This document shows, piece by piece, positions 2,831 to 62,103 of a stretch of 64,000 nt of DNA. A program made the position numbers and the translations under genes. The stretch is taken from assembly GCA_051362555.1 (NCBI GenBank), contig CM120641.1, positions 41,236,401-41,300,400 on the forward strand, written 5' to 3'. How positions within the stretch are numbered: position 1 is the stretch's first letter; each line of letters opens with the position of its first letter. The DNA is from Lingula anatina. Lineage: Eukaryota; Animalia; Brachiopoda. The notes below the pieces were generated by a model. That model was not told the DNA's origin. It ran no database searches and worked only from the letters and a program-made list of their open reading frames with translations.

Positions 2831-4823
2831 CCTACCAAAGGTATTACACACCATACTTCACAGCACTTGTGAAGCACTTTAAACAGGATCAAAATAGAAT
2901 GAAAATGCAGGATATGTGGCCAGTTTCACAAAAGGACTTTGATATATTATATATATAATGTAATAAGAAAAATACTAAATTTATTTAAACACTATTTATA
3001 TGAAGTAAGGTTCACTTGTATTTTATATTTTCATGGGACACAATTCAATGGAAGGAATATACAAGCCTTGCCCTACTGACATTCCTTTAATGGGAGTTCT
3101 GCTTGGTTGCACTAAGCCATTTAGGCACACTATTCCACTTTTATTACAGCAGTGAGTTTATAAACTGTGACTACCAAATGTTCTTATGCTTTTGTGAAGA
3201 GAAAAACAAGAAATGGAAGAACAGAAGGAATGGTTTTTGTGGTGCTTCATACACATTATACATAACTATTAAATTATAAGTAACACTTTTAGTGCCAGCT
3301 ACTGCATCAAAGTATCAAGGTTTTCAAAGCATTTCTATTTAATTTAGTAGAATTTAGGAAAATTAATTTCATTTATCTACTTGTTTGTACATGGCATACC
3401 AATTAAGTCACAAGCTCATTGAGTCCTTATATTTTATTTAGTTTTTTAGATGAACGTTTTCTTTAAATTGCAATGCCTATTACTAACTAAAAGATGTTTT
3501 ATCACCAGTCAAGGGCTAAAATCAAAACCATTGTATAATCTTTACCCTAACTCTGATAGAAGAAACTATCCTAGTAACTGAGCAATTAACACAGGTAATG
3601 GAATTCTTTACAGAGATCCACTACCTGCATCTAATCTTGTCTGAGATGCAATAAAACATTTGCACTTTTAAAATAATAGCTCCAAGAACAATATCTTATT
3701 CATGCTATGTAGTTACGCATTTACTTCACACAGGCAACTTCTTTGATAACCAAAATCTGGTAGCAACTGATGTACAGACAAAAAAAACAGAGGTGGTATT
3801 CTATTCAGAAACAGACCTGAATAGAATACCAATAATACATCCACATCAGATAAAAACAACAAATGTCCAATTACGCACCAAAAATGTGCAGCACTTAATA
3901 CCAGTTGCCATGGTTTTTTTAAACACCTCCCTCCCACCCCACCTTATATCTTAACTTTGATCTGACTATTACCAAGCCCAAGGTTACCAAAGGTGTGGCT
4001 GAGAGCCACAAAGAAACCACAAATTTTACCAAAAAAGAAAAAAATACAGACTTCAGCCACACTTCACTGCCTTAACTGGTGTTTTTTTTAAACTTTCAAA
4101 ACAACAAGAGGGAGTAAGCTGACATTCTCAGAGGTAGATTAACCTAACCTTGCACTGTGACAATGTCAAAGCAAGTTACTAAGAAAACTACTACCGTTTT
4201 AGTCAATAAAGCCTAAAAATCTACTCAAATGTATTTGCACATTTGTCTTGGGTACCTCATCCATTAAACAATTTACATTAATCTTTCCTCTTTTTTCTTG
4301 GTCTGAATAACTCAAGTACAAATGCATACAATGAAAGACTACTGAATAAGATGCCTTTTCTCTTCAAAACATATCAAATTAACAAAACATAAAATACAGA
4401 CTACTGATCCCTTCCAGATTGAGAAAAATAGAATACCAAACAACAGTTCAACGATATTATTATTATGATTATGTAATTTTTCGTCCTAAGCTATAAAACA
4501 TGTTGCTTTTTCATTCAACCATTACCTAATTTATCATATATAAATAGCATCATGTCAGCATAATACTTCTGGTCATGCACTGGCATAATAAGTAAATACA
4601 GAAAAACAAAGCAAAAAAAAGGGGAAAAATGAACTCTTTGATTATTGTTGGTATTTCTGCTGACCTAACAAATTTTGGTTCAACTAAATAAGACCCACTC
4701 TCAGTCTTAAGTTCCTTTGTGAAAACAGCCCCTCAATTTAGCCAAAACAAAATACTGAAAAGAAAAAATGGAGAGACCAAGTCCATTAACTATTTGTTAT
4801 TCCTTCAGGTGATTTGCCACCAG

Positions 4824-6152
4824 ATGGAGCTGTGTCAGGTTGTGTTGATCGTGCTGGCTCACCTGACCACCTCGGCCTATCAGATTAAAGGAAACAGCAC
4901 GCACATCTACTCTGATGCCCCGTACCCAGTAAAGAGGCCTCGGACCCAACTGTACATGACGGTATTTCCATTCTCGAAAGCCATATCCATACGGTGGGAT
5001 TTAACTTCCTATGACTACATCACTGATATTACTGCAAAGTACAATGTTACCCCGGGATCGCTGATCACTATATCAAATATCACCAGGTTTACCAAAGAGG
5101 TGAACATAACACACCTGCCAGCCAACAGACCTGTGACAGTTTGCTTACATGTTACGTTCAGCAATGAAAAACCAGTGCGAAAATGTAGCACAAAGACAAC
5201 ACTAAGGAAAATACAGCCCATTCCTCCTGTAAATAATGTTCAAGAGCTCAGCATTGAAGCCACTATCACTCTCTCAGTGCTGATCATACTTATCGTGGCT
5301 ATCGCAGTAATATGCATCATATTTGCCAGGTATCAGAAAAAGCAAGCTCTGAAAAGACAGCAAGCCCGAGCACTGCGGGTAAGAGCTCGTATACAAGGCC
5401 GAGTGAGTCAAGACCCAAAGAAGGCAGCAATAGGTAAAATTCTAGAGCACAAACACCTCCCGCTGGACAGTAAGACTCTTACAGAGGACTGGAGTGTAAG
5501 CAGTGAGGTCAAAGTGCAAGACTGGCAACAGAATCGAATTAGTTTGGACTTTGAACCTCCGTCTGACGCCCCAGTGGTCGACACGGAGGACCTGGTTTTC
5601 TTCCAAAATCACACAAATGGTAAAATAAAACACGACGACGGCAAGTCGAGCAGTTTGAATTCACAAAGTAAAGTAGGCAGCAAGGCGTCTGATGAGAAAC
5701 CATCAACAGAAGAGAAGAGCAGTCTTAAGGAAGCTCATGAAAGTCCCAGTGCTACGCTCTCCCCTGAAGCAGCAGTTGCTGAGGATATAACACCCAGATC
5801 CTCTGAAGAAAATGCCCCAACTGAAACTGCGAAAACAACAGAGGAGAAAAAATCAAGTCGTAAGACTACCAGTGGTCCCCCAAGACGCAAAACACTGGAA
5901 GAAAAACTACGCTATGCACGAAAAATCAATGCAAGAGCAAATAGAATGAACAGCAAGTCAGGTACAGACAGGCGTTCTGGAAATAAAACATCGAGTGGCA
6001 AGAGAAGGAGTAGTAGGACTTCAGGAGAGAGATCTCGCTCCAGAAGTTCACACAAACAAGATGGCGAGTCTGGTGAAAGGCCCAGCAGCCATTCTACCTC
6101 TCAATCTAAAAGTCAACCAGCAGAATCACATAATCCAGTGTCTACAGACTGA
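4824..6152 (+). CDS. Type I membrane protein: signal peptide, one FN3-like domain, TM helix and a long S/R/K-rich disordered cytoplasmic tail (~442 aa)
   Basis: Long ORF in GC-richer sequence. Acceptor ttattccttcag ends at 4808 and the ATG is at 4824 (MELCQVVLIVLAHLTTSA, signal-like). FN3-like segment AISIRW...VNITHLPANRPVTVCLHV; TM segment ITLSVLIILIVAIAVICIIFA followed by RYQKK; stop at 6150-6152. Confidence 0.85.
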   Translation: MELCQVVLIVLAHLTTSAYQIKGNSTHIYSDAPYPVKRPRTQLYMTVFPFSKAISIRWDLTSYDYITDITAKYNVTPGSLITISNITRFTKEVNITHLPANRPVTVCLHVTFSNEKPVRKCSTKTTLRKIQPIPPVNNVQELSIEATITLSVLIILIVAIAVICIIFARYQKKQALKRQQARALRVRARIQGRVSQDPKKAAIGKILEHKHLPLDSKTLTEDWSVSSEVKVQDWQQNRISLDFEPPSDAPVVDTEDLVFFQNHTNGKIKHDDGKSSSLNSQSKVGSKASDEKPSTEEKSSLKEAHESPSATLSPEAAVAEDITPRSSEENAPTETAKTTEEKKSSRKTTSGPPRRKTLEEKLRYARKINARANRMNSKSGTDRRSGNKTSSGKRRSSRTSGERSRSRSSHKQDGESGERPSSHSTSQSKSQPAESHNPVSTD

Positions 6153-8132
6153 TATCTTGATGCCAAGATTAAACATAATGCAAAAAAAAAATGTATATCA
6201 AAATATGAACTTTCCCTTACTCAATTGTACATATCTCAATTTTTTTTATCAATTTTTAATTTTTTTAATGACGTTAGTGCATATAAAATCATCAAATAGC
6301 ATTTAAAAAACCCTGACAACTCTACGTCATATGGCAATTATGTGCACCTTCAAATGGTTTCCCTGTACAGTTGAAGCATAATCCAGATAATTAGCCTGCC
6401 AGACTGTGACGACCAAGCAAAGGCCACCCAAGTAAATGTTTTCATATGCGCACCTAATGTTTAAACAATTTGTGGGCATGTTCTAAATTCTCAACCTAGA
6501 CAGATTTACTTAATGGATCAGTGTGTAAAAATGCATATATTTTACAAAAAATATAGTTAAAATGACTGTCAAAATAATAAAATTTTCATAATAAAAGCAA
6601 ATTAGGTTTGTAATTTTAAAAAACTTTTTTACAAGCCTTTCTGTGCTTATTACAATTGTCTGCCTCCCCCCTTCCCTTTTTTGGAGGTAGGTTGAGAGAG
6701 AGGCTATGAACCAATGCTTATGTTAATGGCTCAAGAGAAAATAACATGTAATGGCTGTTAGACTGCAATCTTCTCTTCAACATATCGGCATATTGCGGTT
6801 TAAAAATGTCAATGTCATTAATGCCCTTTGAATAATTATCCTGCTATTATGAAAAGCTTTTAATTAATATTCTAAAATGTCCACCAGTAAAAATTACAGT
6901 TATGCATGCCTTTATCATTAAAATGTGCCCTTTGCCAAATAAGATATTTTTAACACTTACTCTCGACTATGAGATTTATCACCCTAGGATATTTTATCAT
7001 ATTTGAAATGTTCCAGTCAAAAATCCAACAATATATTAAATCTGACCAAGTAAACAAGTTGGAAGCAGTTCTTTGCATGTCAACCAACTTCGGGTTTTAA
7101 TGGCAAAATTTATCATTTGTGAATACAGTGATTTACATCTACAAAACTGTAGTAATAAAATCAAACAATACACCTTTATATAATGGCAAAAAAAGTAGAA
7201 AGTACAATATCTGTTTGAAGGGATCATAATTTTTTTAACATATTTATGCCTATTTATGGACTAAAATCACATAATCTTTATCATTGTGACATAAAAACTT
7301 CTCTAAAAAAGACAAAAATGACAATTTTATGTTTGATAATCAAACCAACATCATAATACTCTTTTAATTCAGCAGAAAACCCACGATGCTAACTCACAAA
7401 AACTACTTTTGAGAAGTTTACAAAATATGACAGACAAAACTGCATCTTCAGCTTCTGAAATAGCACTGCCACACAGACAACACATAAAGCTACATCAGAG
7501 AAACCCTGGACTCTCTTAGACAGCAATACCAAAGTAAACATCAACTGAATCCACTATTCTTTAAATAGAAATAAATCATTTATATGCATCTTTTACCCTT
7601 GATGCATGTTGCTGAGAAGACATTATTAGCCAAAACCGTGGATATGTTTAGGGGGTCATCATATATGACCCAGGAAATTCTATGAACCATGAAAACACTC
7701 CATAAGAAGCTAAGAATGTGAAACCCATAAGTGGATACTAATGCAGTCTGCTATTGGCCCCTGCCTCAATGAAAATGAAAAGCAGATTTGGTGTTGCACT
7801 AAAAAAACAAGCTTTATGTCGGAACTAATAAAACTTATAGCAGAAATGGTCTTGATTAGAAAAAGATTAACTCTACAACCTAAAGAGTAATTTTTGAACT
7901 GGACAAATGAAAATGTTATATGTCAGGAGTGGCGCATTTCTCTTTTCATATTCTTTTAAATGTTAATGCTAATCTTAAGTTTAAAACAGTATGTATAAAT
8001 TAAAGCAAGCAAATAAATAAAAATAACTAACACACTCTTTCAAAATGGTACCCAGATGACACAGAATCTTTCATATTTCAAACATTTCACTTTTTCTTGT
8101 AAAAAAAAGGATTAAAACAAAATGGTCCATAC

Positions 8133-17142
<9,010 letters not shown>

Positions 17143-17759
17143 GGCAGAGCTTTACATGTGCAGTAGAACATATTTTCCTCATACATTTGGTTTGATGCTT
17201 GAATCCCTACTCAGCATCACATTCATGCAAACCGCATAGAATCAACTATTGTTCTGAAAAGTGTGGAAGGATCTATTAGTATTTAATTTACTTCAAATTT
17301 CAATATGTGACATTACAGCCTTGGCCCTAAATGCCAATTAAACAGAAGCCGGACTAGTAAAATTTTGGAAATTTATTAAGTTAATGGTCACTATGTATAT
17401 TTTTTAGACTCTGGTGTAAAAGCTGTAACATGGGAACATAAAGCAATTTTTTGATTGCATTACTACTTGTTCGGCAGCAGCAGTGGCAAAGACACCCTGC
17501 AACACCAGGCAATAAATGCACATTTAACAATCTAATTCTTAAATAATTCTATGTTCATTTTTACGGAGTTCTGGGCCAGTGAATAATACAAACCTATACA
17601 AACCAAAGTTTCCTCCAAGCCTCGTTTTAAGTAGGTCAGTTTTGTCTTATCAAAATAATTAAATTATTGAAGGTACTGTTTAATTAAACATTCCCTACAG
17701 AGATTGGAGTTAAAACTGAAAAAAAAACTCAATTTTTTATAGGTTAAATTATGATTGTG

Positions 17760-17960
17760 TCGAAGATGACGCTACAAATACTCCACTCAAACCTTCTGCG
17801 ACACCCATCACGACAAACGTAAAGGGATACTATATAAATCAGTACCCACTGAAGGCATAACACCCACGAGTTTTGAAAGGTTACAATTTTTCGGGCGCTG
17901 GGGAAAGTGGGGTATTTTGTCTGTGGTTTTGTATCTAACTTGCAAGCAGGTTCGTTTATT
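17760..17960. promoter_or_regulatory. Putative bidirectional promoter shared by CCDC57 and the LRR gene
   Basis: CpG-richer patch between two divergent ATGs (17142 on -, 18093 on +). Candidate 5'UTR donors point outward: - strand at ~17845 (tgg|gtactg) and + strand at 17950 (cag|gttcgt). Matching acceptors are at ~17254 (-) and 18076 (+). Confidence 0.6.
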
Positions 17961-18092
17961 ATACTGAGTTTATTACGACAATATCCGGATAATTAAAATA
18001 TTATGATTTGATAACAATTTATTCCGGTTATCAATATAATGTTGAAAATATTTAAAATCGTGTCGTTTCATTACAGATAATTGGTGTGCACA

Positions 18093-21000
18093 ATGGAGAA
18101 AGTTGAAGAGCTTATACGATGTTATGAAACAAGAAAATCCACAAACAGCTCAAGCGACGGCACCCAAAACAAAACAACCCTTTCTTTGAATTCTCTTGAT
18201 CTCAAAGTTATACCTACAACTGTATTGAAGTTGAGTTTCTTGACACATTTATACTTGGACTATAATGACATAACACATCTACCTGACAATCTAGGGCAGT
18301 GTCTCACATCACTTGAACTGATATCTCTCATTGGAAACCAGTTAAGCAGTTTACCAGAATCCGTAAGAGAAATGACAAAACTTCAGCAGATTTTCCTTAA
18401 TGAGAACCAGATCACCCAGCTGCCTGCTTCTCTCTCTGGCTTGCAGAAGCTGAAAGTCTTAAATTTTATTGGAAATGAACTAACAAGTTTGCCTGATGAT
18501 TTTGGACATTTGATCTCACTTGAGCAAGTGTATGGGGAGGAAAATAGACTTCGCTTGCTCCCAGATTCCATCTGTTCTTTGGGGGAACTACAAGTGTTGG
18601 ATCTGTTTGGTAATAAAATCAAGAGCCTTCCAGATAATATTGGTCAGCTCATAAATCTACAGGTGCTAAATCTTAGAGAAAATGCACTGTTAAGTTTGCC
18701 CAGCTCATTCAAGGATCTGTGTAGTCTAAAGCAACTAGATCTCTCATACAACTCTCTCCAATATTTGCCAGAAGACTTTTTATCATCTCATTCCTTGGTC
18801 AAGCTTTATGTGGATAAGAATGAACTGAAGTGTTGCCCACCTTGGATCAGTGACATGCCAAACCTAGAGGAACTATCACTTAAAAGCAATCTTTTGTCTG
18901 GGCAGTCGCTGTCTGATTCATTTGGCGACAATTGCAAGAAGTTGAAAGTTTTGAGACTTTCTGGGAACTTCATGAAGAAACTCCCAGACTCTCTGGGCCA
19001 GCTGCAGAACCTGGAGTACATCCATTGTGGGAGCTTTCTAGATGAATTGGAGAGAGGCAACTTTCAGAATGGAAATCATTTGCAATACTTGCCTGATAAC
19101 TTTGGCTGGTTGACCAAACTGACAGAAGTTCGGTTTGATGAGAATCACCTCCATGCTTTGCCAGAAAACATAGGTGGTCTGATCAGTTTGAGGTTCCTGG
19201 ATTTAGGTAATTGTTCACATGGCAGTATATTGCCTAAAATTGTGGCACTTCTTCTCACATTCCAACTCTAATTTCAAGGTAGCTTTTTCTCTGTGATTGT
19301 GTTTTAACTGAAACTTGTTAAAACTTGTAAAAATGAAAATGATGATAATTCATTGAAAAAAATACTGAAATTTTACAAAATATGAACATGTGTACTGTTA
19401 TCTACATTCTCTTTATAATAAATATATCAGTAACAAGAGACCCTTCCTGACACTGACTTGCTGACACTTACAATAAGTAAAATGAATTTTTTTACTGGTT
19501 ATTAATAGTGATAATTCCTATGGTCATGGGTTATTTTAAAAAATTCTTGAAAATTTTTTTCAGGTCAGAATATCCTGAGAGTCCTTCCAGAGTCATTTGG
19601 TCAGTTGCAGTCTCTTGAAGTGTGCTTGTTGTCCAGGAACCAAATACAGATCTTGCCAGAGTCATTTGGCAATTTGACCAGCCTCATAGAGTTCAGAGTG
19701 GACAATAACTTGGTAAATTTAAATCTGTTGTGTTTCAGTAGATATATTCTGGCTTATAGCCTTTCTAGATGAACAAAACACAGGTTTAATGATTTAGCAT
19801 CACCTTTGTAAATTTTTTTGGTTTCATGCGTCAACTCTTTTTTTATGCAAAAAAAAAAAAAAAAAAAAAAAATTGAAAAGGCCAATGGATAACAGCAAGG
19901 ATATATTACCATCTTGGTAATTCATTCTTAATATTTACATACTAGACTGTTTGATATTATCATCTTACTATTATATATTCAAGCATATTTGGGGTGATTA
20001 CTTCATCTGTTCAGTGCTACAAAGTTGATATTTCAAATTTAGCTTGCTAGGTTGCCGGAGTCATTTTGCAAGTTGACACAATTGAAGACTTTAGATCTGT
20101 TTCACAACAGATTGGAAGTTATCCCCCAGGCACTGAGCTATCTCACCAACTTGGTCAGGTTGGACCTAAACGAGGTGAGTTTTCTCTTTTAATTTAACCT
20201 ATTCCTAGTCCACTTCAAATGCATAATGATCATTTTTACCACCATTTTGACAGTGTTAACTCTGTCAAAGCCCAAATTTTAATGACAAAAGAAAAGTACA
20301 TCTGGAAATGAGAATGTCTCCAAGCAAACATTTTCTGTCAAGTTTGATGAGCACTATGAAATTAACAAATTGCTGCAATGTCTACAGGTATTTTCATTGT
20401 ATTTTTTTTGCATGTGCAATTGCAGAACAATTTTGGTCTCCCAGTGGAAGAGATTCCAAGTATTCTCATCAATTCCAAGTATGCCCCGAGAGACAAGGCT
20501 CTGAGTCACAACTGGAGAGGACGTGGAAGGAAGGATCAGACAGAGATTGAAGTGACTAAGGTTGGTGGCCATTTTACCTAGGCAGACATCATGCTTGTGG
20601 ATTTGTCGTGCCTCGTTTTTAACATCTGATTCAGAATTTCCATAGTCATTTATATGAACATTTAAAAGTTTTTTTTTTTTCATTTTATGGACTCACAGGT
20701 CAATTACTTTAATGGAGTTAGTAAAATTTTGAAATAAAAAAAACCTTGGCCGCAGCTTTTGAAGAAGCTGAAATAGATTAATAAGCATTTCAAATTTATT
20801 TTCCCATCGGCAAGTGTTTATTTTTTATTTTTGACAAGTATCTAATCACATTTCAGGTAGAATCCACTGTTGATAAAAATGAAGCCGAGACTGAACAAGA
20901 AATACCTTGGAATCCAACTATACTGAATATTGCAATGAGAAGAAACATGTCCCTGTGGAAGTCTCATGAAAGTGGCGCCACCAAGAGGGAAAAGTTCAGA

Positions 21001-22357
21001 AGGGAGGACGTAGTATGGAGACAACCAGAGCTGGAAAACAGAAACGTAGAGAGTTCTGATGAAGAGTGGGAGACATTACCAGAAATATGTGAGATAATCA
21101 CAATTTTTAAAGCAAAGATTTGTGAAATTGTTCTTTCATGTTACCAACTAATGGTCATCCCCTGAAAACTGCAAGTCAAAATCAAAATTAACCCCTTTGT
21201 AGGCAAAATACACAGATAAGAAAAAAATGTCTAAGAAAGATACTAAAATTTCTTCTAGTCCAAGAAGAAAATTATCTTTGACAAATTCCATTTTTTATTA
21301 GTCAGATGCCAAGTTTCCTAGTGGGCAGCTGGTGGACTATTGTCTTATGCCATAAACTACACAGAAGTAGGATTCCAACTGATTACATTTTCATGATTCA
21401 TGAAAAACAAATTGTTTACTGTCCTTAACTAGTGCCTCCAGCGGGCAGAAATATTAAGACATATATTTCTCCCTGTTTATAGCCTCTAGTGACCTCTCCA
21501 GCAGCATGGGCAGTGGTGTAACATCTTCTATTGAGGGATACTCAGTTGGTGACACTGCCATCAGGGACTTGATTCTCCAGAGCAAAGATGATGAGGAAAT
21601 TGAGGATTGGGATCAGGAGGCAGATGAGGACCCATATTGTGAGTGCAGTTGATTTTTGGTGGCATTTTAGATGATAACACCTTTTTTCTTTCCTTTTTTT
21701 TTTCTCACAATTCTTATAGTTTGGTCTTAATGGCAAGTGGAACAGTTACACTTCTATTTCAACTTTTTTGAGGAGTCATGAGGTTATTTATTGTAATTAC
21801 AAGGTTTCCACAAATTTGTTGTATCAAATACTGTCATCAGTGTCATGTATAATAATAAATTTTGTTGTTTATGATAAGTGATAAGTTTACCTTCCTTAAT
21901 GACAATAATTATGATAGTTAATGATTTTGGCAGCTAAAATCATTTATATTGCACTTTAAATTTATGTTTTAACAGGAGACCATTAATAGGTTAAAACAGT
22001 ACATCCAGACACATACAGGTCTTTAGAGAACCGGTTACATTTTGAAATATCTGGCATTAGCAAATATTTTAAATTACTTTTAAAAATGATTTCTATTTTT
22101 ATGGATTTTGAAATAACTGACAGTCCACAATTTTTTCACAACATGAAAAGGTCAGATATGAATATTTTGTATTATTCTTTCTAGATTCTGTCCCAATATA
22201 CAAACACCAAACTGTGTATCCCAGGGATACAAGTCCTGTAGATCACATCTTTGTACCAGATGATATCCATGTGCCAGCAATATGCCGACCACAGGTCAGT
22301 TTTCCGGTGGAGGAAGGTCAGTTTGATGATGTGGACAATGAAGATGACAATTGGTGA
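18093..22357 (+). CDS. Leucine-rich repeat protein (~19-20 23-aa LRRs) with an acidic COPR5-like C-terminus
   Basis: 7 phase-compatible exons: 18093-19206, 19564-19712, 20043-20174, 20426-20560, 20857-21088, 21483-21638, 22185-22357. Repeats follow LxxLxLxxNxLxxLP. The C-terminus reads ...EEIEDWDQEADEDPYYSV...HIFVPDDIHVPAICRPQVSFPVEEGQFDDVDNEDDNW*. Confidence 0.9.
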
Positions 22358-25026
22358 GGGAGTTGAAGTACTTGCACAACTTTTTTTTTACTTCCATCGC
22401 ATAGTAATATATGAATGTGGATGACTGCAAACCCAGAGAGTGCCCATTTACAAGGAGGATCAGTGAATTGCATGTAACAGGGAAGAGAAAGTTGGACGTT
22501 TGGAAAAGTCAGAGTGTGACATTTAAAGATGGAATATCCGGCAATGACTCTCTTTTTTCAGTGGAGGAAAATTGTGATTTTACAGATACTGAATTTTTTT
22601 ACCTCATAAATTCCTGAAATTAGAACATTCCTTTTGAGTGGTAGCAACAAACTTGAGAAGCAGGCTACAAAGTATTTCTGTTCTATATGGTAAGAGCCAC
22701 ACAATTGAAACACACAAAAAATTTTTTAAGATAACAAAATTAGGTTTCTGGAAGATTAAAAAATTTTTCCCCACTGAAAACATCCGAGTCTTCACCGTTG
22801 TTCCATATCAGGATTACTTTCAAAAACCGTCTCATTGGCAGCATAGAAATGACTTTAAGAAGGCATACAAACTTGTAAGTGAGGTGAACATGAGAAAAAA
22901 GTTCACTTTTGATTCAAATAAAAAAGACTTGGTACAAAAATTAATTGGTAAGATTTATTTTTTTAAATGTTTTGTTACATAATGAAGCATGAGCAAGAAA
23001 AAGTCATTCCATTTGACTAGTAATCATCTAATAAATACCTGACAAAAATACTGACTAGATTATTTACATACTGTAACTTGAGAAATAAGAATTTGTTTCA
23101 TTTGACTAGAATGACACAGTTCATGTTTTTGAACATATGTTGACTAGAGGAGCAGTTTGGCCAAGTAAAACCATGGCACATTTTCCAATAGTCAGTATTG
23201 CAATATTAAAATTACAGGGAGATCACTCACTGCTGTGGGTTGTTCAGTATCAGCTCAGAAAAGATGGTCAAACAATGATAAAACTCATTCACTTATTTTA
23301 GGCTTAAAATATGAATTGCCTATTCCACTCTTAAGAACTAACAACGAAAATGTCTTGTCAGCATATTTCATATTAATAGTTTGAACTCGCCACAAAAGAA
23401 AGCAGAGTTATATGCCTGAACTGATAATTAACCACTTCTTTCATTACACATTCAGCATGAATAATTGATCCCTTAAAGTCTGAAAAATATGCCTTAAAAT
23501 GCTGGTATGTGATCATATTGAACTGTTCTGAAAGTGTGCATTATTGCACTTAATTATGTGCATGTCTCGTGTTCCCCTTAAAAATTCATACTATGACAGC
23601 CTTAAAATACAAGCTTTAAGAAAGATACTAAAACAATAATAGAAATAAGATTTAAATTCAAAACTTTATACTTCTCTCCAGCCACCTGCTAAGGTTGCAG
23701 CACCTGATGTAAAAAGACTTATCATTCGTAATCAAAATATAAATGTGTATAGTATATTAAAATGTAATGGTTTATAAGAATGAATGCCACATTTTTGTTT
23801 TAAAACAATTTTACTTAGTGATGGTTATAAAAAACTTTAGCAAAACACTGCCGACACAAATAATTGAAACTATTAAACTTAATATTCTAAAAAAAAAAAA
23901 AAAACACTTCTGTACCAAGTGCTTAATATATATTTTGTTCTGCAATTATCACAGTGGTATAAAAATCAGTCTGTGAGAAATAAAAAACATTAAAATTAAG
24001 TAATACCATTTAAATAGAAGTAATTTAGCTAAATTCTGACCATTTTTCTTTGTCTGAGGAATGTGCAGAGCAGAAAACATTAAAAGCTGAATGCTGAATG
24101 CTTAAAACCACACCTTTTCATCAAACAAAAACATAAAATTCACAATCATTTTTCCAGAATCAGTTTTAAGAAGTTGCACATAGTTTGGTATAAATCAAAA
24201 GACATTTACATTATTTTGACATGAGACTTTACACACATTTTTTCTTAAAATGACTAGTATCAGACAAGTTGATATAATCTTTACAGAAAATATAATACAC
24301 TAATACATAACAAGTACAAGTATGAAATGATTATGTGATGACAAATATATATGTTTACAAACAGAAATTTAGTCATCAAAATGTAATTACAGTTGAAACC
24401 TTTTCCTTGTTAACTAAATCAGAATAATTTTTTAAGAAATCCCCAAAATAAAATGATAATACGAATCAGAAATGGATTTAGACTAGAAAAACATTTGACG
24501 AAACCTCAAAACCTGCATAGATTACCAGGACTATATTCAATATGGTGACATCTTATTTATAAAATAAAATATAAGAAAAAGTTTATGAACTCTTTATTTG
24601 TTCAAAGAACCTGAAAATTCCCCGGATTCACATTGGGAATTTCCTCAGATCTTTGCTATAGCAAATAGCATACAGATGCTGATTTTTGAGGAGTTTCCAT
24701 AAAACTCTGAAACTGGAGGCACCAAGTATGTTCCCTTACATGTTTGATATCTTGTGCAATCTGCCTACATCAATTTGTACACACAATTTAGTATTTATTT
24801 ACATCTGTATTAGAAAAGCACTCTTACAACTCTCAATTTAACCCTTCTCCAGAGAATAATATAACAATCTGCTGACTTAAACCAATGTCTTCCTGTAAGA
24901 CCTACAGACCATCCCCTGTGAAACCTATCTTCCCAAATTGAGCAGAAGGAGACTTTTTCTTTTGATATCTTTTATCAGGTTTCTCTTGTGCTAAAGGCAT
25001 GCTGCCCAACTTGGTCTTTCATTTGT

Positions 25027-28000
25027 TTACCTGGCCCCAGGTACAAGAGGTGCAGAGCGATCATTTGTAGCAGTTTTCTTCAATTTGACATTGGCGAATG
25101 GATTGTTTCTGAAACAAACAGATGGGAAATTCTTACTTAAAAGTTTTTATTGTTGTTATTACTGATAGACGTGTGTAAAAAATGGAACAATTTACCAAGA
25201 AAAACAGCTAAATTGTACACTTTCACATAAATGGGCTTGAAGCACCAAGCCTTAAGGAAAATTTTACAACAGGAATTCAACTTCTCATACCATCAATTAG
25301 TCTTGTCAAATGGATTGCTAATGTGATACTGTATAAATAAAACCAGATTGACACCAACATAAACTTAGTTTTGGAGTACAAAAGCTGGTAAAGAAAACAC
25401 AGCAAAAGAGAAAAGATTTATGACACCTGTTTATTTCAATTCATGGCCCGTTTAAAAGTAAATATGTCACCAAATGATATTAATTATTTGTCACAACATA
25501 AACTTCAATTACCAACTTTCATTTCCAAAATAATGTTCAAGTGGTGATCATATGTGATAGTCCTCTGCTGAGAAATCTCCACCAAAACAATGGTTTTAAG
25601 TTGTGTGATAATCAGAAAAGACAGCTATGATATAATGACACATTTACCCCCATAGTCAGACCCCGACACCAGAAGTTCATTGATCAATCTAACTTCAGGG
25701 ACCTCACTGTTACACAAAATCACTCAAAGACTGAACATTTTTTCAACAAGACCAAATGTGACCTAAGATAGATAGGTTATAGTCTAGTTAAATTTAATAT
25801 TTTGCCCTTTTTATTTAAGAAAAGAGATGACCAACATTGCATACCAGATTTTTCAGGTTTTAAAGTTGAGAACAACTTTCAGTTTCAAGTTCCTTTGTGT
25901 AAACTGCCCAAGGACCTTTCTGACTCATGTACCCTATACCAGAGATCAGCTGGACGAAAACATGATTTCTGTGCTAAAATTTTAGCTGTACAGAAATGTG
26001 CACAGAATTAGCCCGAGTAATAGCTGTGAATATCTGGAAAAAATCTTTCCATAACACTGGTAGACAGTAGGTAACAGGCAGAAGTGTAGCTATAGCTGCC
26101 TCCATCACCACAAGCCATGAGGACACTTACAAGGAAATTTTTCTCACTTTCAAGTTTTCCATGTTCTTTTTTCTACAAAAATTATCACATTTTTTTTTTT
26201 TGCAAACCTACACACAAAGTTCATCATGTAGTTTATTTACATTTAACTCCCAAAGGAACAACACCGAAAAAAATCCACCCAGCTTTCTCAAGAAATTTTA
26301 TAGAGGACTTCCAAATAGAAAAAAAAAGAACCTTAAATAACAAATTTCTTTACCTATTACATGCTTAATGTGGATCAGTATCTGAAATAATAATAGAATT
26401 CATGCAAGTGCTACTAGAACACAGTAAGTCAGTACTAGAGTTAATTACTTCATGAAGGGGTGGAATGTTGTTGGGGAGGTTGGGCACAGACATCAAGTGT
26501 AATAATAAAATTATCGTTTCAACAAGCTGGGAGTATATGGTCATACTAAGCTTAGTAGAATATGTCATGAAATGGGGGGGGGGTGTGCATTCTTTATCAT
26601 ACATTAAAAAGGTGGGGGAGGGAAAGAACATTTGATTGCACTTATGGTTTATAATATCATGGAATGTTTATTATTTATTTTTTAAAAAATTTGCACAGTT
26701 CAAGTTTTCAAACCAGAATGGAGAATTGCAGCCCTTCCTTTCCTCCCTCTTTTCCAAACTAGAAATTGGTGTTTGAACTGAGATTTAATAAATATTCTGG
26801 GTCCAAAATATCACACAGTAAAGACAAAGTAATATTTCTGTTGATGTGAAAAAACAATTTTTCAATTAAAACGGTGGGTCAGGTACTTTCAGGATTAAAT
26901 ATATCATCACTGCTTGAATGGCAGACAAAGATATATGGAGGAAGTAGCCCAAGTCAGGTTATGGATAAAGAGGCCAATGCAGAGTTAGGATATGAGTGCA
27001 TGAAGGTCAAACCAGACCAAAGTTTACAGAACTTCCATTTTACATTCTAATATCTTCTTAACTTGTCTTAATGAGTTTGATTTGTAGATTTGGTGTGTAC
27101 ATCAGATCCATCAAGAAACGTGAATAGCAGTTGAACAAGGTGAAACTGATACTGTCACAGTGTAGTAACCTTACCATGCCATATATCATGGTGCTGTAAG
27201 TTCTCTACAAAAATACAACAAACACCACCTGTTACTAGTCACTAACATGACAGCAAATCCTTTAATAAAACCTGCAATCTACACAACAAATATACACATA
27301 CATATAAGAAATACAACAAAATAAGTCTTACTTCTGGGAATCCTCATCACTGTAGTCCGCAGCAGGAGGAGAGCTATGGTGGCCAGCTCTCCCATAGGGA
27401 TCCTCCATGGCTGAGCTCCCCCTAGATGAAGACCTGTCACTCTGGCGATCCTGCGACATATGAGGGTTATTATAATACCTGGGTCGTCCTGGGCTGGCCC
27501 CCTGATGCTGGGAGTGGTAAGGAGAATGCCTGCTGTAACCATTAGGGTCATGGCTGGCTGGGGAGTAGCCACCAGGACGCTGAGGGTGACCTGGCTGTCC
27601 ATTTGGATGGAGAGAGGAAGGAGGCGGGGGAGGAGGAAGAGGTTGTTTGTGATTGTCTGCGATTGGTGGAGGTGGAGGGGGTGGCGGCCCTCCTGGGGTC
27701 AGTTGGCTGATGTCAGGGGTACTCTTGGCATGGAACTGGAAAAAATATGAAGCTAGGTTTCAAGGACTGGAACGCTGTTTTTTTTTCTCAGCAAATTGAT
27801 TTATGATTGTTGCACATGGAAAAGAAATATTCTTTTCAGTTTTGTTGCTCCATGCTGGTATTGTAAGCATAACTGTGCCATCATGGTGCAAGAATGTACA
27901 TATGAAATATGTTTATCAGAAAAAATAAATGAAGAATATTGCTGAAAAAATAAAAGACTGTGCATTATCACACTTCCATACCTGTCAAACAAAGCAACCA

Positions 28001-31000
28001 TGCTGTCAAATATTAAAGCTACTTTAAAGTATTAAAAACAGTAATGTTTTTAACTCTAGAACCAAGCAAAGTCACACAGATATTTGAATTATATTTCTAC
28101 AATACATTTTCATGCAAAAATGAAGCCAGCAGATAAACCTGCAAAAACAAGAAGCAACTAAATAGATATTCATCAACAAATAAAACATTTCAAAGGCACA
28201 TATGCAACATGTTATCACTAAAAAAGCACTACTATCCATAAAGCAAGCAGGGTAATTGAAATTTGTGTTGGGAACCAGTGATATAGGGGGTCATGCCATA
28301 GAAACACTCAGTGCTGGGTTTCTTCTCATAAGATATATACAAAGACACGTCACTCCAGCCAATGCATGCACAGTACCTGTGCTGTATCGTTGTTGTAAGA
28401 ATCATTCCCACCACCAACGCCACTGCTCCCACCACTAACACTAGGGCCGTATCCCCCATCATCATGTGCTCCGTTCACACTGACTGCGCTTCTATTTTCC
28501 TGTTTCGGATGGTGGAGATGATGATCGTAATAACTGTGCCTAGAGTTCACGGGCTGAATAGAGGGAGTCCCATCACCATAGTAAGAACCACTGTGTTGAT
28601 GTTGATGATAAGCTTTAAGTCCAGTGTTTGTATTACTATGACTACTGTTGGAATGATAGTTGTTTGATGGCCTGCTATTATGCATTGGTCCACCAGAGTA
28701 GCTTATATTGGCATCTCTATCATAGTCATTTCCATGTTTTTGGTGATGTGCCTGATGTCTATAGTAACCTCCTTGCTGCCCAAGTGGCACAACTGAGTAT
28801 GTCTTGGTACCCATATGGGGTACAGCATACCCCCCTTCCAACTGAGGTGGGTGGGCAGGTGGGGGAATGTCTGGTAACGGAGGGGGCAAAGGTTGTGGAG
28901 TTGATGGAGACTGATCTGATTCCTGCGAAAGCCCAGAAAGAAACACACACCATGTCAGATACAGCAGAAGCCCAATTACATTAAATTAAGAGTGAAAAGA
29001 TTAGTCCACTTAATCAATAAAGTTAAAGGAAAAGCAGGATGGGATTAACTCCCAAATTCCCCAAAGCCCAACAATTCCCAAGAAATAAATTAGATTGTTA
29101 AAATTAGAAACACCAGTGGTTATGTCGATCATTGTTCTGAAAATCAGCGCCATACCATCATGCTCTTCCCTATGTAGCCATCTTCATATGGCTTAGGCAT
29201 AGTCCTGCTGCGTGGATCTGGACTGACTCCAGAGTCGCTGCCGTCAGATTCATCTGCCAATAAGTCCCCCATACTGCGCACTCTCTGCATCATGGTTTTG
29301 CTGGTAGAACATAGGAATAGCATGCACCATTAAACTTTTCAGTCCACTGAGGGACTAGATAGCCTCAGAAAACTACCAGTCCAAATCAAAATTCTTCTAT
29401 GAGATGAATTCCATATGTTTAATCCTCTAGTTTGGCATTGCACTAAAGGATGTCTGTTTTTTTATCGTTTATATGTTATCTATAATTTAGGATACAAAAT
29501 AATTTAATATAATAATTTCAACAGAAGGGGTGAAATTTGATAAGTAAATGCGAAAAAAAAATATTTCACTTGTCAAAAACTAAATCCACCAGTCAGCTGC
29601 ATCAAACTGACAGCTTATGTCACAGACCATTTTTTTAAATAAAAGTTGCATCTTTAGATCTACAAATTTAGAGCCAGAAGTGGTTTTAATCTACAAATGT
29701 TTCAAGAAAAATTGGTCACTAGGTGATGCACGCACGCACGCACATACACACAAATAAAACGCCATTTTTTCTGCTGCTTAGACACTTACCTCCTGTTAGG
29801 TGCTCTGTTGACTTTCTCTGTAAAGGACACTGGGAACCAGCCCCGTCTAAAAAGTAAACCATAAACCAAAAGATAATAATATTAAAAATTAAAAATTAGA
29901 ACTGCCAAAAATGTTTCTCTCAAAAGTATATTTTATTGTTAATAAATGCTTTACACTAGATTATAATATATTTCATTTGAATAACCTAGAAATAATATAT
30001 TATTTTTAGTTTTATCAGAAGCTGGAAAATACAGATCTAAATAATTTAAAGTGTCTTTCTATTTGTACTAATCTTCCCCATAGTGTGTAAATCAAAATAC
30101 AAATTTGATCTCATTGTACTTTAAATAACAAATGTCATTTATTAGATGCAACATCTGTTAAGTATTTTTCATTTAACTTTTTATCTTATTGCCTCCACCC
30201 CTTTAATGAAAGGCTCAAGCAGATAATTATGTATACTAACTGCACTCTTTACCTATCTGTCCTGGTATTCTCTCCATAGTGCCATCCTTTATTCTCCTCC
30301 CCTATCAGGACCACGATGTCCCCTTCAGTAAAGCTGAGCTGGCTGTCCTGTTCTGCTACATGTGTAAACAGTGCTCTCACACAAGACAAGCCACTACCAC
30401 CAGATGGAGGCAGTGACATCTCTCTGGGCAATGTCATAGCTGTAAGGAATAAAACACTTAAAGAATCCTTCTGTTATTTTTAACTTTAATTTATGTCCTT
30501 TTAAAACTTACTAAACAACTACTATACACTACCACTTATGACTGTCATAAATATTTCAAGTGTGATAATATATATTTTCTTAATAGCTTTCATTAATATT
30601 TTTAGATTCATCACATATTAAATACTAAACACCAAATTTATCACATATTAAATACTAAACACCAAATTTTGAAATAAAGGCCATGTTTAAAATAAGATGA
30701 AATGATTGTTATGTTCAGAATGCATGATTGATAACTTCTGAACTGGCAACAGAGCATTTTTATGAGCCTGCTTTGTGTATCAAAACTGACCATTTGTAGA
30801 TCCCACTTGCTATCAAATTATTATTATCATTAATATTATTATTATTATTATTATTACCTCCACCATGATATTGTCCAGTGAACTCTACAGAAGATGTTGG
30901 CCTTCCATTTGGCATCCTATTTTCATGACTGCCTGTGCTGTTGGCATCTGTCCCCTTTCTTCTACGTCCCATATCCTCTCCACTGTAAGAGCTCATGTCA

Positions 31001-31050
31001 TCGCGCATGTCATATGTGTTACCATATGAATCCTGGGTAAAAAGTGATCT

Positions 31051-31139
<89 letters not shown>

Positions 31140-34100
31140 GAGTAAATAATATTAAAAATTCATTAAAAAACAACACTGAGTTTAAGTAAATACTATGGAG
31201 TCCTCCGACTTACAATCCTGCATATAAATTGTTGACACTATATCTTATATTAAATACCAGTATTAGTCGGTATGTAACAAAGTGTCATCATGAACCAAAA
31301 CTTGTGCTAATGAAGACTTTCCAGATTTATTTAATGATAAAAAATTTCTCTTGCCTGTCTTCCAAGTCTCGTCATGGCTTCTACTGGGGGAGGTAGGGTG
31401 CCAGGGTTTTTGCAGGCATTTTCCCACTCTGGGAGTCTGTGACTTAGCAAATCATGGGACTGAAACAGTGAGAATTCTTTTGTGAAAATAATGACTGGAC
31501 TTATACTTGAGCACCTTATTCCTTATCTTGCTAAAGCAGGTTAAATATTGCTGTGAATTAATTTAGGAATGAATTGATGAATCAGAAACATTAGCCAAAA
31601 AATTGACATTTAGAAAGTTTCTGCACAACATGCTGGAAGCCATCCAAGGTAGGAAAATGAGACCAATATTTTGATTAACAAAGAAAAAATTCCATGAAGA
31701 CCAGCCATATTCCCCTGGCCATAAACCCTGTTAAAAATAAACTAGATATTTTTCCTGAGCCAACACAAAACATCACAGAAAGGCTCTCATATCCAGAGTT
31801 TGTTAATTTCTTTTGTCTAGAGGGAATATTGTTAAGCTTTGCTAATAGACTTTTCTCACAGATCTTTTCTTGGAATGATTTTCCACTCCGAGAGAAAAGT
31901 GAAGCAAAATATAGTTACTGTATCATAGAACCTATAGAAATCTCTCTCCCCTCCCCTCAAATTTATAATATACTTAAGTTAACAGCATATCTTTAAAAAA
32001 TCTCAGCCATATCAAAAAACCAATTACTGCAGAGATAATTAAGAGATATTTCAAACTAGAACTTATGAGGAAAGCCAACAAATGATATGAACCACACATC
32101 ACATATTATCTAAATTGACATCTGCAAAGCCTTGCATTCATTACCATAGTAATTTAGGATGGCACACTTCTACATTCAAATGTTCAAATTTACATGATAT
32201 TCATTACCCTTAGCTTCAGAACTGATGTATACCAGCTTTTTCATTTTCAAATATCCACATCAACTAGAGGATCAGAGAGGCGATACCGCCTCCAAATATT
32301 GTACCACCAGCTGGAGCAAGTGCATTCGTATAGACCCCCACATACACAAAATAAGCCACCAGTTTTGTGCTTGACAAGCTGTAAAAATGCAATCAACAAG
32401 AATTTTTAAACTATTGCAAAAAAAATATAGGGTACAATCAAATTTAAGTTCTTCGTAAGGTAGGTCAAGGGTCAATTTCAAGGTCACAGTAAATTGCCAG
32501 TATATGACTTCCTATTCAAGTTCAAGAGTAACTATGGACCTATCTCTGTCAAGTTTGAAGTTAAAAGAGAAAGAAATTAGCAGAGTTCAGTTCATGATAA
32601 AAAGTAGGTCAAAGGTCAATTTCAAGGTCACACTTAGATTGCCAGTATAGGACTTCCTATTCAACTTTTATAGTAACTATGGACCTATCTCAGCCAGTTT
32701 TGGAGATAAAAGGGAAGCAAATTTTGCAAAATTCAGTTCATGGTGAAAAGTAGGTCAAAGGTCAATTTCAAGGTCACATTTAGATTGCCAGTATATGACT
32801 TTCTATTCAAGTTCAATAGTAACTATGGACCTATCTCTGCCAGTTTTGGAGATAAAAAGGAAGCAAAATTTGCAAAGTTCAGTTTATGGTGAAAAGTAGG
32901 ACAAAGGTCAATTTTAACGCACATTTATAATGCCAGTATATGACTTCCTATTCAAGTTCAATAGTAACTACGGACCTATCTCAGCCAGTTTTGGAGATAA
33001 AAGGAAAGCAAAATTTGCAAAATTTGCAAAATTCAGTTCATGGTGTAAAGTAGGTCAAAGGTCAATTTTAAGGTCACATTTAGTTTGCCAGTACATGACT
33101 TCCTTTTCAAGTTCAATAGTAACTATGGACCTATCTCAGCCAGTTTTGGAGATAAAAGGGAAGCAAAATTTGCAAAATTCAGTTCATGGTGTAAAGTAGG
33201 TCAAAGGTCAATTTTAAGGTCACATTTAGATTGCCAGTATATGACTTTCTACTCAAGTTCAATAGTAACTATGGACCTATCTCTGCCAGTTTTGGAGATA
33301 AAAGGGAAGCAAAATTTGCAAAATTCAGTTCATGGTGTAAAGTAGGTCAAAGGTCAATTTTAAGGTCACATTTAGTTTGCCAGTATATGACTTCCTATTC
33401 AAGTTCAATAGTAACTATGGACCTATCTCAGCCAGTTTTGGAGATAAAAGGGAAGCAAAATTTGCAAAGTTCAGTTCATGGTGTAAAGTAGGTCAAAGGT
33501 CAATTTTAAGGTCACATTTAGATTGCCAGTATATGACTTCCTTTTCAAGTTCAATAGTAACTATGGACCTATCTCTGCCAGTTTTGGAGATAAAAGGGAA
33601 GAAAAGTTTGCAAAGTTCAGTTCATGGTGAAAAGTAGGTCAAAGGTCAATTTCAAGGTCACATTTAGATTGCCAGTATATGACTTCCTATTCAAGTTCAA
33701 TAGTAACTATAGACCTATCTCTGCCAGTTTTGGAGATAAAAGGGAAGCAAATTTTGCAAAGGTTTATGGTGAAAAGTAGGTCAAAGGTCAATTTTAATGT
33801 CACATATAGATTGCCAGTATATGACTTCTTATTCAAGTTCAATAGTAACTACGGACCTATCTCAGCCAGTTTTGGAGATAAAAGGAAAGCAAAATTTGCA
33901 AAATTCAGTTCATGGTGTAAAGTAGGTCAAAGGTCAATTTTAAGGTCTTATTTAGATTGCCAGTATATGACTTCCTATTCAAGTTCAATAGTAACTATGG
34001 ACCTATCTCTGCCAGTTTTGGAGATAAAAGGGAAGAAAAATTTGCAAAGTTCAGTTCATGGTGAAAAGTAGGTCAAAGGTCAATTTCAAGGTCATAGTAA

Positions 34101-35581
34101 GATTGCCAGTATATGACTTCCTATTCAACTTCAATAGTAACTATGGACCTATCTCTGCCAGTTTTGGAGATATAAGGGACTAGATGTTATAATTTTGGAG
34201 TTACCATAATGTGCCTTAAATTTCGTACAGAAAAAATTAATTAAAATAAAGAAAATGTCATTTTGGTCAAAATTCTTGAAATAGGAGGTGCTCTGAAGTT
34301 TCAGAAGTTCAAATTTGATGAAAAAATGTCATTTTTGAACACAAGTTGTCTGCTTTGCCAAGCCTTATGTTTTATTTTTCCAGAGTTCAAAATTTATTAT
34401 CTATTACCGTACTGCACATTTTGCTTTTACCACCAATATGTACTTTTTGATACAGCGTAACTCGAAAACCGTATGGAATACAAAAAAACCGAGACCACCT
34501 CCAGTGTTGGGCTTTACATGCTCTACAAAATGCAAAAAAGAATGGGTCTCTAGCATTAACGGTTCCCGAATTAGAGACAGTTTTCAGTTTCAGTATCTTA
34601 TGGCCGCTACTCCCGTGAAAATGCACCGATTGACCCCAAATTCATGGAGATGAAAGATGACCTGAAGGGTAACACTTTCCAATAATATTATTGGTTAAGT
34701 CTGTGTGGTGTCTGAATAACAGGGCAAAAAAAAATTTTTTCGTAAAAAATTTCATTTTTTTGAAAATTTTGGCCCATTTGACCTTGAAGTAAAGGTCAAA
34801 GGTCAAATCCAAGGGTATATTTGAAATCTACACATATGACTTTTGGAAAGCCGTCTATAGAAATTTTTCCCATAACTCCTTCCGTAGGGTAGATAATTAG
34901 CATTTAATTTTGCTATTTTTAGACAAGGGTGCATTGCAATGAGTGCCACACCCAGACCCCAATACCGACAAAGCCCAAATTTTACGTGGAACGAGTTGAG
35001 ATTATAGGTGACCTAAATCCATGAGATGGGTACGGGGGCCCTTACCGTCTAGGAGGAGAAGCGGTAACGGTAGCCGTCCGGCGGAGCCGGCGGAACGATC
35101 CGGACGGGACCGAAACCATGTGTACCGCCAGCGCTAACGCTGGTGGTACAATAAAGCATTTACCTGATAAGCAAATAAACATATGTGAAAATTTCAAAAT
35201 TGAAAAACTGGCCGAAATATTCACCATCCGCCTGGAGACTTAAACAAAAAGCTGGTATATCACTTACTTGGTTGTGATGCGAGGAGAACCTCTTCATTAC
35301 TGTGGAAATTCTGTCCAATATAAGACAGTATCTCTTCCTTTCTTCCAACAGAGCCTAAGGTGAGAATTTTCATATGTAAGAAGCATATGTAATGTAAGAA
35401 CCATTGCAAATTTAAATCAATGTGCTTTTGCAGTAAAATTTATGGGTACTGTGTGTGCATTAAAAGATAAGTAAATCTTCAAAACATAGTAAACCCTATA
35501 GATACAAAGCTGTGGTATATTTCTTAAATTCAACTGTGCATTCTACCTATATCATGGAGAATGGATTGGGTGTTTAGTTAT

Positions 35582-35667
<86 letters not shown>

Positions 35668-35724
35668 TAATAAATAAATAAAGAAGTAAAAATATACATT
35701 TTTTTACAAAAGGAATCCTGCCCC

Positions 35725-35755
<31 letters not shown>

Positions 35756-38700: not shown

Positions 38701-40413
38701 CATAGAAATATAATATATTCTGTTTTACCACAAAAACAGCAGTTATAGCTTTTATTCTGATATCTGAACTTGTCTTTAGACCATGTGACCTCCATTGATG
38801 TCTATACTCTGTTAAAATCTCTTAAGAGATTTTAACAAAAAACCAAACTTTTTAGAAAAAAACCAGGGACTACCTTTGAATGTAAAAATGGATTCATTAA
38901 CCATTGGTAAGTATGGGAAAATTGTTGTTTACTCCAGGAAAATTCATTTTTTGGCCGAAACGAAGAGTTATTATTGCTTTAAGAAACCTTCAATATAAGT
39001 TAGAGTATGATAAATATTTCATAGTTTACAAATCCTTGAAATCCCCCCCCCCCCAAAAAAGAAAAAAAATGGGGGGGGGGGGGGAATAATGTGATCATGC
39101 AACATGAAATATTGGTTTTTCAAATGCATTATTTTTCATCAATTACAGCATAAATCTGATCTCACCTGGTTTTCTCTGGGATCAGCTATCCCCTTTCCTC
39201 TACTCTTCTTCTGGCATTTTTTAAGATTAATGCATGCCTTTTCATGCGGCTGCATCACCATCTTATGTGCTTGGCCATACTTTTTTTGTTCTGCCTACAA
39301 TGTAACAATTTTGATGAAAAATATTCTTTTTATTGATTTTTATATGATTGAATTTGATTAAAACAGGAAACACATTAGAAACTAAAATATGAAGATTGAG
39401 AGTTTATATTACTGTCATAGGTGAAACCAGGTATGTAATATTATAAGCAATAATGTGATTTTATCTTCATAAAACACATCTTTGATCTGTTTCTTCTATG
39501 ATTTACAAAAAGTTGAATATTTGTCAACTATATGCAGTTATTTTTTGCTTCCTTTACAAATTATTTATATGTTTGAATTTTAGGTGTTTTTTTCCAAAAA
39601 CATACATATTTACACTCACTCACCTGTAAAACTTTATTGTCCCCATCAATCTTACTTTCTAATGGTATCAACAGTTCTGTGTGAAATGTTTTGATCTGGA
39701 AAACATAATGGTATATCCAATTTCAATCAGAATAATGGGATATCACCTAATCAAAATTCACCTGCAAAATGTTACTATTATCCTTAACCCTGTTTTTAAC
39801 TTAAACTTTCTTCTTCATAATTTAATGACAAAATTAAATTATCCTTATGGCATGTTGTTAAGTTAATATCATAACTATCAGTCATAAGTTAATACAATGC
39901 GCAAATGTTTTATGGCGCAATTTCTTAGAACATAAAACACATGCAATTTAAAATGAAAGTGAATACAAAATAGGAAAAATACCCTGAAGCAATGCAATTG
40001 CTGACCTTTGGAGTTATAAACCCAACACAGGGTTGAATCTTATCAAGTCCGGTTCCTTGTACAAACCAGAGTAAGACATGATATAGCATACAGCCTGATA
40101 TGTACAATACTCTAAGTGAAGGTTTTTTTTGATAAAAAGGATACAATCACAACAAGTAAACTTGTCTCTGAATTATATCCAAATGAATGAAAACCATTAC
40201 AGTTTGATATAGGATGAAGATGTTTGGGATTCCTTAAAAGTTGATTATTGTTTGATTTTACCCAATCAATTAATGGGCTTATACCTAAAAGTAACCTCTT
40301 ACTTAAACAGCTTAAAATAAAATATACAGACACAACACTTGCTGCCTCTAGTTAAACCCTCTATGTAAGTGATGTTCACTGTGTATTGGTTATCTGCCCC
40401 CTCCCTCCACTCC

Positions 40414-40500
<87 letters not shown>

Positions 40501-45291: not shown

Positions 45292-45341
<50 letters not shown>

Positions 45342-48770: not shown

Positions 48771-62103
<13,333 letters not shown>

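Follow-up and report, generated by a model that had tools for sequence, protein, structure and literature searches.

A leucine-rich repeat protein of Lingula anatina with a COPR5-like tail: a candidate adaptor of PRMT5

We report on a gene of the brachiopod Lingula anatina in a 64,000-nucleotide stretch of assembly GCA_051362555.1 (contig CM120641.1, positions 41,236,401 to 41,300,400 of the forward strand), here called the window, in whose own coordinates all positions below are given. The gene lies at 18093-22357 on the plus strand and encodes a protein of 696 residues, in which a solenoid of leucine-rich repeats (LRRs) leads into an acidic tail that carries GQFDDVD near its end. Sequence comparison leaves us in little doubt that the tail is a homologue of COPR5 (also named COPRS), which in vertebrates is an adaptor of PRMT5. 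COPR5 was reportedly found by Lacroix in 2008 to bind histone H4 and to bring PRMT5 to chromatin. The explanation that we consider probable as a whole is that the Lingula protein is a PRMT5 adaptor of the COPR5 lineage, that its repeats would hold clients near the enzyme, and that the LRR-bearing form is ancestral. An earlier reading of the letters alone (the original prediction) had proposed a COPR5 homologue fused to LRRs, and its claims are taken up with the results that bear on them.

Gene Structure and Expression

The gene has seven coding exons, all of its introns are GT-AG, and the joined frame has a single stop. Its features are as follows.

17950-18076, plus strand: intron in the 5' untranslated region, with 19 junction reads in RNA run X1; the transcript start is upstream
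18093-19206, plus strand: coding exon 1, with the ATG and LRR1-14, the family-specific loop of LRR13 inside
19029-19082, plus strand: family-specific loop inserted in LRR13, GSFLDELERGNFQNGNHL, in coding exon 1
19564-19712, plus strand: coding exon 2, LRRs, with RNA junctions
20043-20174, plus strand: coding exon 3, last LRRs, with RNA junctions
20426-20560, plus strand: coding exon 4, LRR cap region and the conserved NWRGR motif (20510-20536)
20857-21088, plus strand: coding exon 5, a helix, the S[IL]W[KR]SH block (20947-20967) and the beginning of the acidic disordered linker
21483-21638, plus strand: coding exon 6, linker, E.WD.E block (21593-21619) and DPY, followed by a phase-1 intron
22185-22357, plus strand: coding exon 7 (the last), F.P.D.H block (22244-22276), VEEGQFDDVD (22307-22336) and the stop
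22316-22336, plus strand: core motif GQFDDVD, residues 684-690, six residues from the C-terminus

The original prediction had the last three exons spliced in frame, and this holds. They have GT/AG ends and join in frame to the four upstream exons with phases 0, 1 and 1. The tail peptides that it quoted are all encoded there: SSDEEWETLPE (21052-21084), EEIEDWDQE (21593-21619), HIFVPDDIHVP (22244-22276) and GQFDDVD (22316-22336). The RNA evidence comes from four same-species runs (X1, X4, X7 and X9) out of nine listed. X1 covers all six coding junctions, with 11, 36, 38, 24, 21 and 19 reads. The junction 21088/21483 is seen in X1 and also in X7 and X9, and the last junction, 21638/22185, in X1 alone, one run of the four. 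X1 has 495 reads placed versus 24-45 each in X4, X7 and X9, which confirm some junctions, the last excluded. Seven AG acceptors occur between 22120 and 22260. Five close the frame within a few codons, the one at 22242 retains the motif, and that at 22185 is the sole one with reads among the reads listed. No difference falls in the motif codons (22316-22336) among the read differences listed. RNA runs in which similar numbers of letters were read vary about ten- to twenty-fold in depth over 18000-22800; this may be an effect of tissue or stage.

A database protein of the same length, P0002, is named 'leucine-rich repeat protein SHOC-2 [Lingula anatina]'. It has seven differences from the window model, and its motif is identical. 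The expectation that an automated annotation would see only an LRR protein is thus borne out by the NCBI name. A search with the last exon alone matched the Lingula protein only, among two candidates.

Relationship of the Tail to COPR5

A profile built only from invertebrate sequences, 21 tails in all, was searched against 1.84 billion representative proteins. It gave 70 matches at E<=1e-3, with named vertebrate COPRS among them at E values of 6e-7 to 1e-3. Six of the 70 pass the gathering cut-off of the Pfam COPR5 model (PF15340), which is 27 bits, and an unnamed shark protein reaches 24.9 bits on that model. When 20 of the matches were looked up by name, eight proved to be, or to cluster with, annotated COPRS: a ray (E 5.7e-7), a bird, two caecilians, a coelacanth, a newt, a sturgeon and a frog. 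The Pfam scan of the 58 new matches (the best five families for long proteins) showed neither a pICln nor a RIO family, which means that the shared heptamer by itself had not pulled those proteins in. The same profile in a word-indexed search placed Xenopus COPRS at E 4.2. In sequence searches of the PDB (chains of at least 20 residues), neither the tail profile nor frog COPRS had a match.

The profiles were also compared with each other. Thirty-nine invertebrate tails against 12 vertebrate tails gave a probability of 98.7. Removing the motif and the three residues before it left a probability of 95.6 and a score of 42.9; 200 column shuffles averaged 9.3 and reached 18.65 at most. The homology claimed by the original prediction is supported by these comparisons. 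Applied to P0002, the vertebrate profile scores 31.3 bits, or 11.1 without the motif, and 89 other LRR proteins score -0.5 or less. Orthologue scores under the vertebrate profile vary widely, several bivalve and spider tails falling to about zero without the motif.

The likeness extends to the layout of the tail. The blocks E.WD.E..PY, [FY].P...H and GQF[DE]D[AV][DE] come in the same order in Lingula and in COPRS, as had been predicted, including the correspondence of the vertebrate Y.PS.HH.P block with FVPDDIHVP. Both are acidic and disordered, and both have a His about 16 residues before the motif. The spacing is exactly 16 in Lingula, in 8 of 10 vertebrates, in all four tick-type proteins and in 11 of 19 LRR-bearing invertebrates, with 17-18 in five more. 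The last Lingula intron splits the codon after DPY (DPY/Y) in phase 1. In all four vertebrate isoform pairs, the two isoforms part at [PY]Y or one residue beyond it, as judged from protein isoforms rather than vertebrate DNA. The Ala-to-Val change of the Lingula motif also occurs inside the vertebrate family, in two annotated caecilian COPRS whose ends read GQFDDVD and GQFEDVD. COPRS differs from the Lingula protein in being roughly 150-220 residues long with no LRR, whereas the latter has 696 residues and 19 predicted LRRs.

Could an acidic disordered tail have gained a short PRMT5 motif independently of COPR5? Short linear motifs arise repeatedly, and pICln, RIOK1 and COPR5 share GQF[DE]DA[DE] in the account given in 10.1101/2020.08.22.256347; the Lingula tail is below the Pfam COPR5 cut-off, and its acidic composition is able to inflate scores. 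Convergence does not explain why the match survives removal of the motif and exceeds 200 of 200 composition-keeping shuffles, nor why three blocks have the same order and spacing and an intron sits at the same place. Neither pICln nor RIOK1 was identified among the 70 tail-profile matches, which gives no sign of homology beyond the motif for those two. We regard convergence as very unlikely.

Several results count against that homology. The Pfam COPR5 model, proposed beforehand as a check, matches neither P0002 nor its tail at E<=10, nor any of five exons scanned singly, the last three included. It matches 5 of the 21 invertebrate tails, weakly (best E 0.0017), and named frog COPRS, too, stay under its cut-off (24.5 and 26.5 bits). 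Only the last ~70 residues show significant similarity to COPRS, and the N-terminal two thirds of COPRS gave no significant alignment to the Lingula protein. No mammalian COPRS appeared among the 20 matches looked up by name. Of the 12 vertebrate sequences, ten had been retrieved with the invertebrate profile itself, and the remaining two share a cluster with a sequence retrieved in that way. Since the vertebrate set was picked in this way, the profile-versus-vertebrate scores and the agreement in spacing are biased upward. On balance, the Lingula protein very probably belongs to the COPR5 lineage, as a form with an LRR domain, and stands outside formal membership of PF15340.

A forced global alignment pairs the W[KR]P[RK] block of the vertebrate N-terminus with the S[IL]W[KR]SH block of the invertebrate proteins, but no local match does so, and the equivalence is not claimed.

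Architecture of the Protein

The predicted model (AlphaFold2, from a 34-sequence alignment) has 19 LRR strands at residues 29-462 with high confidence, close to the 20 or so repeats first counted. For most of residues 476-696, the predicted local distance difference test (pLDDT) is below 50. The loop inserted in LRR13 has seven residues (G313, S314, E318, R321, N326, G327 and N328) that are invariant in all 34 aligned orthologues. Conservation of the concave face is 0.67 for LRR12-19 versus 0.50 for LRR1-11.

Residues 571-696 have a net charge of -27 and form an acidic, variable chain with conserved islands. The islands after the repeats are, in order, NWRGR, S[IL]W[KR]SH, E.WD.E..PY, F.P.D.H and the terminal GQFDDVD. 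NWRGR comes directly after the LRRs. Its site reads GRG in Lingula, and among the 34 orthologues W[RK]G[RK] is found in 28, WRG in 27 and WRGRG in 3. E628 and W630 are invariant in all 34. The motif sits outside the folded domain in the low-pLDDT tail. When the 221 post-LRR residues were shuffled 200,000 times, 7 of the shuffled sequences contained a match to GQF[DE]Dx[DE]. This is not a small stand-alone protein; the RNA junctions tie the tail to the LRR exons, and the model shows a folded domain.

Pfam searches with the whole protein and with its exons gave LRR families only. In the ESM Atlas, the tail had no usable match, and residues 290-696 matched generic LRR clusters only. By fold, the protein is closest to a Leptospira LRR protein (32% identity) and to SHOC2 (7TVF and 7T7A; 25-29% identity, template modeling (TM) score by query 0.49-0.59), and this resemblance is a generic one. 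SHOC2, one of the intracellular LRR solenoids, is like the Lingula protein in having about 19 regular 23-residue repeats. It differs in its identity of only 25-29%, and the Lingula protein has in addition the LRR13 loop and a 220-residue tail with the COPR5 module. That the gene encodes an ordinary SHOC2-like LRR scaffold whose tail has no role with PRMT5 is suggested by the NCBI name and by the place of SHOC2 structures among the best fold matches. We find this scarcely credible. The identity to SHOC2 is not above that to the bacterial LRR protein, compared with 35-45% inside the orthogroup, and no fewer than 90% of the 34 orthologues retain the motif's Q and F in a tail that is otherwise variable.

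Conservation of the Motif among Orthologues

A search with residues 300-696 scored 7,988 candidates and gave 2,347 matches, 120 of them listed. The LRR region by itself places 33 of these 120 in one group. Bivalves, gastropods, annelids, spiders, echinoderms and two corals are among the members that have names. A variant of the motif lies within the last 40 residues in 28 of the 33 orthologues among the 120 listed, and 12 have exactly GQF[DE]DA[DE], which sustains the predicted conservation. The Lingula motif, GQFDDVD, is not an exact instance of this consensus. At the position of the Lingula Val, the 28 motif-bearing orthologues have Ala in 17, Cys in 7, Val in 3 and Ile in 1. None of the 89 other LRR matches, which include two truncated orthologues, has a motif variant in the last 40 residues.

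Proposed Docking on PRMT5 and Role of the Repeats

According to 10.1101/2020.08.22.256347, GQF[DE]DA[DE] is necessary and sufficient for binding in the PRMT5 TIM-barrel groove, and no human proteins other than pICln, RIOK1 and COPR5 have it. Within the motif, Q and F are indispensable, and G and the second D matter (PMC8252068, which also gives 141-184 as the PRMT5-binding part of COPR5). All four of these hot-spot residues are intact in the Lingula motif. The adaptors that have been studied are described in PMC11847536 as flexible tethers competing for one site. Like the Lingula protein, pICln (CLNS1A) and RIOK1 have a folded domain from which a flexible linker leads to GQF[DE]Dx[DE] at a terminus; they differ in that the folded domain of the Lingula protein is an LRR solenoid. 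Because all hot-spot residues are kept and the design is the same (folded domain, long flexible linker, terminal motif), we infer docking along with COPR5 homology, and by analogy to these adaptors, the protein would quite likely dock on PRMT5.

If the solved adaptor-peptide structures are a guide, GQFDDVD would enter the TIM-barrel groove through Q, F, G and the second D. Further contacts, with the PRMT5 complex or with a basic partner, may come from the E.WD.E..PY and F.P.D.H blocks. These two blocks persist in LRR-less relatives, so the repeats are not needed for them. In the weakest step of the scheme, LRR12-19 and the invariant LRR13 loop would form a client-binding surface, and the repeats would hold client proteins near PRMT5 for symmetric arginine methylation. 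Substrate choice by the LRRs is to us the most likely role of the repeats, and we lean toward it slightly. Since mouse Coprs co-precipitates Miwi (PMC6325579), it is conceivable that the clients could include germline PIWI-pathway proteins.

We consider it unlikely, but worth weighing, that a COPR5 homologue binds PRMT5 with LRRs that do not choose substrates. The repeats could then localise or scaffold the complex, or the protein could compete with pICln and RIOK1 and be a regulator or, through WRG[RK], itself a substrate. Adaptors do compete for one PRMT5 groove (PMC11847536, PMC8252068), COPR5 recruits histone H4 without any LRR (PMC5370280), and the vertebrate and tick records have no LRRs. 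WRG directly follows the repeats in 27 of the 34 orthologues, and GRG is the preferred PRMT5 target site (PMC11847536), but the full GRG is present in just 3 of the 34. A specific ligand is suggested instead by the LRR13 loop, with its invariant residues, and by the conservation of the concave face, and the tether architecture is that of the known adaptors. Our preference stays with repeats that select clients.

Other observations tell against the adaptor reading and the role given to its repeats. The motifs of 16 of the 28 orthologues are variants of GQF[DE]DA[DE]. Four orthologues lack the Gly, and five bivalve-type sequences have Asn for the hot-spot second Asp. The Ala position, where Lingula has Val, lies outside the alanine scans (PMC8252068). 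Five of the 33 orthologue records (P0009, P0028, P0031, P0036 and P0041) have no motif. One of these is marked partial, two end right after the SH block, one enters unrelated sequence after 'DNPY', and one coral model shifts after the E.WD block; they look like truncated or mis-joined gene models. The LRR parts of the insect proteins described below are no better than unrelated LRR proteins by profile score. No result names a ligand that the LRRs would bind.

The bivalve-type sequences (P0003, P0004, P0007, P0012 and P0015) share the motif xQF[DE]NCD and a conserved C-terminal V[DN]PVF. Their sequence change may mean altered or co-evolved binding.

Distribution and Evolutionary History

Proteins with LRRs and the tail are also found in a thrips, a wasp, a dragonfly and a butterfly. 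These insect proteins have an insertion at the same repeat as the LRR13 loop. The ticks Amblyomma and Dermacentor have proteins of 104-268 residues with the tail and no LRR, represented by several RefSeq isoforms and one assembled contig product. Three tick proteins (P0125, P0126 and P0168) have no LRRs, a doubled E.W[DE] block and the full tail. The tick proteins are possibly a second, independent loss of the repeats, or split gene models. Among the matches looked up, no record was named from amphioxus, a tunicate, a lamprey, a teleost, Drosophila or a nematode.

The most parsimonious account is that the LRR-bearing form is ancestral and that the repeats were lost separately in vertebrates and probably in ticks. 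In its fullest version, which we hold to be evenly balanced, a fourth and so far unrecognised PRMT5-adaptor architecture would be spread across animals as far apart as corals, sea urchins, molluscs, spiders and insects, with substrate choice falling to its LRR solenoid; vertebrate COPR5 would be its LRR-less remnant, and ticks would have lost the repeats independently.

COPR5 homologues are stated to be tetrapod-only in 10.1101/2020.08.22.256347; databases already name fish and ray COPRS. Chicken COPRS is placed on GGA18 in PMC10035218, whose accessible part makes no mention of the genes neighbouring the Lingula locus, and we claim no synteny. No invertebrate or LRR-bearing relative of COPR5 was noticed in the titles and beginnings of abstracts that were found, in which subscription journals are thinly covered, so prior notice is possible.

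Neighbouring Genes and Repeats

A multi-exon, minus-strand gene for a coiled-coil protein at 8100-17220 stands head to head with the LRR gene, less than about 1 kb apart. It contains the spliced junction 16539/17054. A Pfam scan gave it no clear family; it may resemble CCDC57. At 4692-6149 on the plus strand is an open frame of 486 codons, partly rich in Ser, Arg and Lys, with no significant family in the Pfam scan.

On the other side, minus-strand exons at 27300-46400 match IMD and SH3 and make up an IRSp53/BAIAP2-like gene. Minus-strand reads at about 23000-23200 may be the 3' end of this gene converging on the LRR gene. A tandem array at 32460-34179 (146-bp units, 11.8 copies, 91% matches) is apparently intronic to it. 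Minus-strand exons at 49100-62200 match UCH and USP7_ICP0_bdg and belong to a USP7-like gene.

Significance

Only three motif-bearing PRMT5 adaptors have been described so far. If the interpretation is true, the origin of COPR5 moves back to at least the cnidarian-bilaterian ancestor, and a large folded domain is present where vertebrate COPR5 has none. The other two conserved blocks, which keep a fixed distance from the motif, would be candidate second contacts beside a groove that is pursued as a drug target. Many proteins now annotated as 'SHOC-2-like' or 'lrrA-like' would then come with a testable hypothesis, that they bind PRMT5 and that their LRRs have clients.

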